A DNA stretch of 64,000 nucleotides from Candidatus Gottesmanbacteria bacterium (GCA_043801155.1 JAZDMI010000021.1:2683-66682); one strand, 5' to 3'. Counted from the first letter of the stretch, positions 57,313-57,466 are shown. Notes: generated by a model not told the origin, from the sequence alone. Numbers and translations are program-made.

Positions 57313-57341
57313 TTGCATTTTTTGGGCTCTTGAATTATAAT
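57313..57341 (+). promoter_or_regulatory. consensus promoter for the rplC-led ribosomal protein operon (module J15)
   Basis: TTGCAT-TTTTTGGGCTCTTGAAT-TATAAT. Confidence 0.7.
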
Positions 57342-57415
57342 AAGTGAACTTTGATATGGAGGTGATTTCACCGACAAAAAGTTAGAATAGCGGACTGGCA
57401 CAACGTATTTAGTCT

Positions 57416-57438
57416 AGGTGCAGTCGGCACCTTTTTTT
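57416..57438 (+). terminator. attenuator-like hairpin plus T7 in the rplC leader
   Basis: AGGTGC-agtcg-GCACCT then TTTTTTT. The alternative GGCAC(57426-30)/GTGCC(57439-43) is mutually exclusive with it. Long-range GTGATTTC(57362-69)/GAAATCAC(57445-52). Confidence 0.5.
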
Positions 57439-57466
57439 GTGCCTGAAATCACTTAAACTAAAAAAT

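Follow-up and report, generated by a model that had tools for sequence, protein, structure and literature searches.

A conserved leader before rplC in Microgenomates, very likely a transcription attenuator

We analysed a 64,000-nucleotide (nt) stretch of DNA from Candidatus Gottesmanbacteria bacterium (GCA_043801155.1 JAZDMI010000021.1:2683-66682), hereafter the window, and in it the segment 57313-57466, which ends directly before the ribosomal protein gene rplC. In the window, 34.4 kb separate the two parts of the classical S10 operon; Pfam places rpsJ at 22704-23012 and, directly downstream of rplC, rplD at 57912-58589. The segment holds a promoter, a short open reading frame (mini-ORF), and a hairpin followed by a U tract (Table 1). 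Sequence comparison with relatives shows it to be a member of a conserved, previously undescribed Microgenomates family of leaders that stand before rplC. The leader is very likely a transcription attenuator.

Table 1. Coordinates of the rplC leader features in the window
Feature	Coordinates	Strand	Basis
-35 box TTGCAT	57313-57318	+	Sequence read; TTGNNN-16..18-TANNNT in 38/40 relatives
-10 box TATAAT, 17-nt spacer from -35 box	57336-57341	+	Sequence read; promoter scan
Mini-ORF ATG...TAG, 9 codons plus stop (TAG 57383-57385), MEVISPTKS	57356-57385	+	Sequence read; conservation of frame and stop
GGAGGTGAT, complement of the anti-Shine-Dalgarno sequence, within mini-ORF codons 1-4	57358-57366	+	TGGAG invariant in alignments
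Likely antiterminator, 5' strand (C)GGACUGGCAC, begins 5 nt past mini-ORF stop	57391-57401	+	Duplex energy; partner in minimum free energy fold; pairing conservation
Likely antiterminator, 3' strand GUGCAGUC(G)G, i.e. terminator 5' arm, loop and first base of 3' arm	57418-57427	+	Pairing; covarying loop
Terminator hairpin AGGTGC-agtcg-GCACCT (arms AGGTGC 57416-57421, GCACCT 57427-57432)	57416-57432	+	Top terminator-like match in window scan
U tract T7	57432-57438	+	T run invariant in all aligned relatives
GUGCC, can pair with terminator 3' arm (57426-57430), U tract as loop	57439-57443	+	GUGCY conservation
rplC	57467-57904	+	Pfam Ribosomal_L3; ORF list; PDB uL3 matches

The promoter scan reported the same site as TTTGCA-18-TATAAT, and transcription is predicted to start at ~57347-57349. 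The rplC ATG lies 28 nt past the U tract without a Shine-Dalgarno (SD) sequence. SD sequences are absent upstream of most window genes (~26 inspected), nearly all ribosomal protein (r-protein) genes included, and the upstream regions are A/T-rich. From the window alone, the leader signals are not above chance. In the scans, promoter-like sites numbered 59 (37.7 expected from shuffling) and terminator-like sites 12 (11.1 expected), and the fold z-score of the leader was -2.1 (133 nt), or -1.2 without the 3' part. The significance of the signals comes from relatives. A known RNA family was rejected for this leader, as Rfam 15 gave no match above noise: no family reached its gathering score across the window or 16 related loci, and at E<=10 the region 57200-57600 matched only Enterococcus sRNA 70 (opposite strand, 23.5 bits where the threshold is 115), RUF1 and MIR2655. 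No account of an rplC leader in bacteria of the candidate phyla radiation (CPR) came up in the literature, and the searches of Rfam and the literature returned no r-protein cis-regulatory element for CPR/Patescibacteria.

The relatives are Microgenomates (CPR/Patescibacteria) genomes, all of them assembled from metagenomes. Genome and metagenome scans by L3 gave best identities of 63-75%, and closer relatives were reached by protein search and contig look-ups. In these close relatives, L3 is 69-81% identical to that of the window and the leader is retained nearly intact; several share a 474-aa ORF directly upstream of it. Searching the fetched loci with the window leader by nhmmer gave matches in L115 (E 1.5e-6), L049 (E 8e-4) and others, all immediately upstream of rplC. 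In addition, a covariance model, R1, was built from an alignment of 24 leaders (A2) from which the window's own clade was left out. On both strands of the window, R1 had a sole significant match at 57350-57451 (39.7 bits, E 6e-5; next best E >1), and in 174 related loci it had 47 matches with E <0.1, all on the rplC strand and all upstream of rplC, these E-values being rough since they come from a shortened calibration. An earlier note on this DNA had stated that a lack of conservation among relatives sharing the gene order would speak against its proposal of an attenuator; this was checked, and the leader was found to be kept in relatives with the split gene order (L161, L163, L165, L167, L169 and L176). 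RNAalifold on the whole family recovered only the terminator, the middle being too variable for a single consensus. A conserved 5' helix (P0/P1; AACUUU/AAAGUU, GGUG/CACC) is not claimed, as its registers differ among relatives and P1 is absent in L161.

The leader is also found where the S10 operon is not split. In seven relatives (L023, L085, L109, L118, L120, L143 and L151), rpsJ ends 43-71 nt before the mini-ORF, with the promoter squeezed between. The same leader stands after insertions of 0.2-2.1 kb in L022, L049, L054, L112, L097, L003, L107 and L150, and in L030 and L161-L171 it occurs with no rpsJ within 2.5-3 kb. In L173 (295-1377), rpsJ is followed by a MazG-like gene and, after another 0.7 kb, by the leader and rplC; in the window, a MazG-like gene (23316-23663, Pfam) comes right after rpsJ. 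Since seven relatives have the leader between neighbouring rpsJ and rplC, it is older than the 34-kb split, and regulation was not rebuilt after rplC was orphaned. This contradicts the suggestion in the earlier note that autoregulation had been rebuilt or relocated before rplC. As judged from gene order and the conserved promoter, rplC opens its own transcription unit throughout this lineage, and the split used a transcription-unit boundary that already existed. The boundary would also explain why the rpsJ/rplC junction repeatedly takes insertions of 0.2 kb to 34 kb. As an observation on genome organization, insertions have occurred at this junction repeatedly among Microgenomates, with gaps of 43-71 nt, of 0.2-2.1 kb and, in the window, of 34.4 kb (23013-57312).

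We then compared the anatomy of 40 distinct leaders (alignment A4). The -35 box starts with TTGC in 34 of the 38 promoter sites and reads TTGCAT in 17; the -10 box is an exact TATAAT in 32/40 and the spacer is 17 nt in 30/40. The rplC-led block thus has the near-consensus promoter of its own that had been proposed for it, conserved in 38/40 leaders. The terminator, likewise proposed from the window sequence with its T7 tract, covaries in relatives: 90.8% of cells are paired across the 40 leaders, compensatory changes occur in 7 of 9 pairs, and 0/500 shuffles reach any of the observed measures. The rplC ATG typically lies 10-40 nt past the terminator (up to ~110 nt in L097 and L110), with no SD.

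Two observations concern the region between the terminator and rplC. First, L171 carries at 2450-2480 a second hairpin with T6 (GCAAC-aa-GTTGC TAC TTTTTT) between the leader terminator and rplC, L172 being identical, so that these two loci have two terminator-like signals in tandem. Second, an NTG (GTG, ATG or TTG) comes directly past the U tract in nearly all family members (57439-57441 in the window). Only some members have it in frame with rplC, and it therefore probably does not serve as an alternative start. We rejected an extension of the rplC product at its N terminus from this codon, which is in frame in L030, L049 and L085 and out of frame for the window GTG and in L115.

The mini-ORF is conserved in its start, frame and stop. 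Counted from the GAG codon, a stop in this frame follows after 5 codons in 7 leaders, 6 in 20, 7 in 4 and 8 in 9, that is, in 40/40; by chance, such a stop at GAG+5 to +8 is expected with a frequency of ~0.18 per sequence (shuffles), and in the other frames the stops scatter widely. The codon preceding GAG is ATG in 24 leaders, GTG in 10 and TTG in 1. It is CTG, ACG or AAG in the other 5, four of which (L028, L117, L134 and L142) have an in-frame ATG 4-5 codons upstream; an in-frame start is thus present in 39/40 leaders, L105 being without one. The length is 6-14 codons across the family and always 9 in the window clade. Within this clade, TAG, TAA and TGA all occur at the one stop position, all four Thr codons (ACA, ACT, ACG and ACC) occur at codon 7, and the nucleotide differences from the window number 2, 8 and 12 at codon positions 1, 2 and 3. 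The peptide MEVISPTKS, already read in the earlier note, is therefore encoded by a frame that relatives conserve, and we infer that the mini-ORF is translated. In most members it starts 7-17 nt past the -10 box, and it would therefore be leaderless or nearly so.

The second and third codons of the mini-ORF hold GGAGGU in the window. In the alignments, the G and T that follow the invariant TGGAG are conserved at >=90%. The sequence GGAGGTGA was found only 3 times in the 64-kb window. Strong SDs in the window stand only before rpsH (AAGGAGGAA, 63370-63384, before the GTG at 63385) and before a 99-aa ORF at 34131, the latter being GGAGGTGA at 34117-34124. We rejected GGAGGTGAT as an SD for rplC or another downstream start, on the grounds that no start lies at a suitable spacing, rplC is 100 nt away and most genes lack an SD. 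No ATG, GTG or TTG occurs 5-10 nt downstream of GGAGGTGAT, which is ~10-20 nt from the predicted transcription start. At the other end of the predicted transcript, most family members (e.g. L030, L150, L169, L173, L093 and L108) have a CCUC(C)-like 5' end complementary to the GGAGG of the mini-ORF; lying in the first 5-10 nt past the -10 box, it would give an SD/anti-SD-like hairpin around the start codon. It is absent in the window and L161.

Since promoter, ORF and terminator form a complete conserved unit, we considered whether this unit is an independent small gene, with a ~90-nt RNA and/or a peptide of 6-12 residues acting in trans and its location before rplC either incidental or serving co-regulation. 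Two reports describe terminated attenuator RNAs and leader peptides that can act in trans elsewhere (PMC7968998, PMC7298713). However, the unit is always immediately upstream of rplC and on the same strand, whatever lies further upstream, its peptide is not conserved between subgroups, and rplC in the split genomes would otherwise be without a promoter of its own. We regard a small gene as very improbable.

The earlier note had described the leader as attenuator-shaped with mutually exclusive structures. This much is supported by the relatives; the competing helix, however, is neither of the two that it named but 57391-57401/57418-57427, which is likely an antiterminator that excludes the terminator at about equal stability. 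In the window, this duplex has -11.6 kcal/mol against -8.3 kcal/mol for the terminator hairpin, and the pairing belongs to the minimum free energy (MFE) fold of the leader. Cognate antiterminator duplexes range from -10.7 to -14.5 kcal/mol and terminators from -8.3 to -12.3 kcal/mol. When the upstream leader was tested for pairing with the terminator arm and loop in 33 leaders, the mean z against shuffles was -1.62, with 13 leaders at p <0.05. A dedicated mid-element 3-18 nt before the terminator is present in the window clade, L023, L112, L097/L107/L110, L151 and L156; in 13 other leaders, UGGAGGUG itself pairs with the (U)GCCUCC(G) of the terminator.

Terminator loop and mid-element change together in the window subgroup, as AGUC/GACU, GUC/GAC in L170, AUC/GAU in L171 and AA/UU in L023, and in L161 a bulged G has become A at the very position that lacks a partner. 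When partners were swapped between leaders, the mean was -12.2 kcal/mol for cognate and -11.2 kcal/mol for non-cognate pairs (permutation p 0.0027). With the register fixed to that of the window, 85.9% of cells pair in 11 leaders, compared with 15-39% in slid controls. Folded up to the terminator loop, 10 of 11 leaders have the antiterminator as MFE; full-length folds are antiterminated in 4 and terminated in 7, as expected for a switch. Finally, members of the window clade uniformly have 4-5 nt between the mini-ORF stop and the antiterminator strand.

The two helices of the earlier note gave a different picture. The long-range pairing GTGATTTC/GAAATCAC (57362-57369/57445-57452) does exist in the window, within a 19-nt inverted repeat of 84% complementarity, and at -14.8 kcal/mol it dominates the window MFE. 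It is absent from relatives, where the duplex has -2.9 to -8.3 kcal/mol (11 relatives); we treat it as a lineage-specific accident and reject it as functional. The GGCAC/GTGCC helix is likewise present. GUGCY is kept in 8/9 close-clade leaders, and the pairing GGCAC/GTGCY holds in 85% with no covariation. This helix forms only past the U tract and therefore cannot compete in time with termination. It was rejected as the antiterminator on its position and the lack of covariation, although it may shape the read-through mRNA.

The same evidence bears on a non-regulatory explanation, in which the 5' module is a STAB-SD-type mRNA stabiliser, through its SD-like element or translation of the mini-ORF, coupled to a leaky constitutive terminator that chiefly insulates rplC from upstream transcription (tuf-rpsJ or the inserted gene). 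The position of GGAGGUGAU, ~10-20 nt from the predicted 5' end with no start codon 5-10 nt downstream, resembles STAB-SD (PMC4113751), and where rpsJ is adjacent, the leader terminator is the only visible terminator for the upstream unit. However, a constitutive insulator needs no conserved, nearly iso-energetic competitor that co-varies with the terminator loop, nor does a pure 30S-binding stabiliser require conservation of the frame, of the stop position or of the distance from stop to antiterminator. The promoter, moreover, lies upstream of the terminator, so the unit's own transcripts must pass it, which counts against insulation. Overall, we consider this explanation improbable.

Given a conserved mini-ORF next to an antiterminator strand, the reading that we favour, at slightly less than even confidence, is an attenuator set by ribosomes on the mini-ORF at the start of the rplC-led r-protein transcription unit. 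The near-consensus sigma-70-type promoter would give a transcript of ~90 nt before the stop signal. A ribosome on the mini-ORF, in the window clade one that reaches the stop codon, would cover or hold the antiterminator strand, so that the terminator forms and transcription stops. Because the stop is 4-5 nt from that strand, the terminating ribosome in this clade would cover its first bases; in the 13 members with UGGAGGUG as antiterminator strand, a ribosome positioned on the initial codons would act likewise. If no ribosome is loaded in time, the antiterminator would form and RNA polymerase would read into rplC. On balance, translational capacity would feed back negatively on the transcription of the main r-protein operon, and the leader probably tunes the output of some twenty ribosomal proteins.

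Several points weigh against this reading. Which way the switch works and what it senses are what we infer from the layout, and the transcription start, the termination and the translation of the mini-ORF are predictions. For L023, the MFE structure of the complete leader has its 5' end paired to the mid-element; this would reverse the direction, translation then favouring read-through. The gap between stop and antiterminator strand is 13-18 nt in L097, L110 and L049, beyond the ribosome footprint. Covariation in the antiterminator amounts to 2 pairs and 5 cells, values reached by 13-24/500 shuffles, and its support is therefore moderate rather than strong; the sequences are, furthermore, phylogenetically related, so that shuffle statistics overstate independence. 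The mini-ORF has no run of regulatory codons, and the peptides MEVISPTKS, MEVVRQT, MEVIDKI, MAKQTEVILAT and others have no repeated codon in common beyond GAG-GUN. Across subgroups, the peptide is not conserved beyond M-E-V, which is itself dictated by the GGAGGU nucleotides. A ribosome on the mini-ORF does not explain the role of an embedded GGAGGU in an SD-poor genome, and the short leader leaves little time for ribosome loading unless RNA polymerase pauses.

The GGAGGU would have a role of its own if the leader sensed ribosome availability directly, with free ribosomes or 30S subunits competing with the terminator for the GGAGG strand and the ribosome itself feeding back. A perfect complement of the 16S 3' end is the only conserved primary-sequence element and lies inside a near-leaderless mini-ORF, although SD sequences are otherwise hardly used in this lineage, and either this GGAGG element or the strand just past the mini-ORF stop would double as the antiterminator strand. 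The CCUCC of the terminator in many members would be an anti-SD mimic. Excess ribosomes would lead to termination and scarce ribosomes to read-through into ~20 r-protein genes. We hold this version to be possible, though somewhat doubtful.

A different sensor would be a free r-protein encoded in the operon (L4, on the E. coli model, L3 or some other) that binds the nascent leader and autoregulates the attenuator. Such a protein might act by stabilising either the terminator or a paused complex, or by blocking the antiterminator, and the mini-ORF would then be secondary, e.g. shielding from Rho or nucleases. The architecture is the same as in the proven E. coli L4 case (PMC3616713), L10(L12)4 (PMC4538822) and L20 (PMC1865079) act on comparable leaders in B. 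subtilis, and a candidate L4 leader stands before rplC-rplD-rplW-rplB in Archaeoglobi (PMC7247131). The terminator arm and loop are also conserved beyond the needs of a plain hairpin, with GUGCCUCCGGCAC in 10/24 aligned leaders. However, no Rfam ribosomal-leader model matches the leader region even at E<=10, and the leader varies in sequence and length in its middle part, just where one would look for a protein site. The invariant features are the start, frame and stop of the mini-ORF and the anti-SD complement, which protein binding leaves unexplained. These best-conserved features suggest that ribosomes, not a free r-protein, are sensed, and we consider r-protein autoregulation unlikely, though a serious rival.

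If the mini-ORF is the sensor, the r-protein operon would be under the control of translational capacity and not of a free r-protein, an alternative to the classical autogenous model. CPR/Patescibacteria have minimal genomes and almost no characterised regulation. The leader family marks where the main r-protein transcription unit really begins, rpsJ in Microgenomates going with tuf and not with rplC, and the covariance model is usable to annotate operon starts in metagenome-assembled CPR genomes.

Further observations concern the neighbouring genes and other genomes. The window uL3 has 145 aa; residues 31-142 align with residues 87-198 of T. thermophilus uL3, and by this alignment ~56 residues of the N-terminal domain are missing. 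Public data contain an entire clade of L3 proteins of 138-150 aa (P0001-P0034). Upstream, the leader adjoins the 474-aa ORF (55882-57306), which has no Pfam domain and is kept in the same place with 59-68% identity in L161, L163, L165, L166, L167, L168 and L169; L176 has there a 464-aa ORF, also without a Pfam match. A second, different conserved leader ("type 2") was found at the same place, between rpsJ and rplC, in other Gottesmanbacteria-like genomes (L002, L004, L005, L008, L011, L013, L081, L082, L088 and L174). Its layout is GAGATACTYTGGTATACT ... CCAAAAGTCTCGGATGAG ... a GC hairpin with T7, ending 10-25 nt before rplC, and an upstream CUCGG can pair with the CCGAG of its terminator. 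It had no Rfam match.

With respect to known systems, the leader has the features by which attenuators are generally recognized, namely a conserved promoter, a covarying GC hairpin with U tract before the first ORF and an alternative helix of comparable stability. In attenuators of the trpL, pheL and hisL type, a short promoter-proximal ORF is followed by mutually exclusive antiterminator and terminator helices, and the position of the ribosome decides between them. The rplC leader likewise has a short ORF followed by exclusive helices, between which ribosome position would decide. It differs in that the ORF has only 6-14 codons, with no run of regulatory codons and with an anti-SD complement inside it. 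The regulated genes encode r-proteins rather than amino-acid biosynthesis enzymes, and the presumed signal is ribosome availability rather than charged tRNA.

In the E. coli S10 leader, L4 promotes termination at a leader hairpin, and this element is confined to Gammaproteobacteria (PMC3616713). In both leaders, some tens of nt separate an intrinsic terminator from the first ORF, and in E. coli it is at termination that regulation takes place (PMC3616713). However, the E. coli leader precedes rpsJ, whereas the leader described here precedes rplC even where rpsJ is adjacent. The folds lack the five-hairpin HA-HE layout, and the conserved, translated-looking mini-ORF with GGAGGU has no counterpart in the E. 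coli leader. A search for homology to the E. coli-type leader (HD/HE hairpins) gave no Rfam match, the presence of that exact family in Rfam 15 being unverified. Membership in the E. coli S10-leader family thus failed on position and homology.

The L10(L12)4 and L20 leaders of B. subtilis combine anti-antiterminator, antiterminator and terminator elements (PMC4538822; PMC1865079), and the rplJL leader holds a translated leader peptide that affects expression (PMC4538822). The rplJL and infC-rpmI-rplT leaders resemble the rplC leader in serving r-protein operons by attenuation through antiterminator/terminator alternatives. They differ in their sensor, a free r-protein complex that binds an anti-antiterminator, and in rplJL the leader peptide is encoded past the terminator, where it counteracts Rho. 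The rplC leader matched neither L10_leader nor L20_leader of Rfam.

STAB-SD elements bind 30S subunits and block 5'-3' decay (PMC4113751). The one of B. thuringiensis cry3A shares with the rplC leader only an SD-like sequence near the 5' end without a matching start codon. Here, in contrast, this sequence is inside a conserved reading frame, beside a terminator and antiterminator, and in 13 relatives it is complementary to the terminator CCUCC. Finally, a candidate L4 r-leader of Archaeoglobi is conserved directly upstream of rplC-rplD-rplW-rplB (Eckert and Weinberg 2020; PMC7247131). That leader is archaeal, has another fold and is reported with no mini-ORF; what it has in common with the Microgenomates leader is a place before rplC in a lineage that does not have rpsJ as its first gene.

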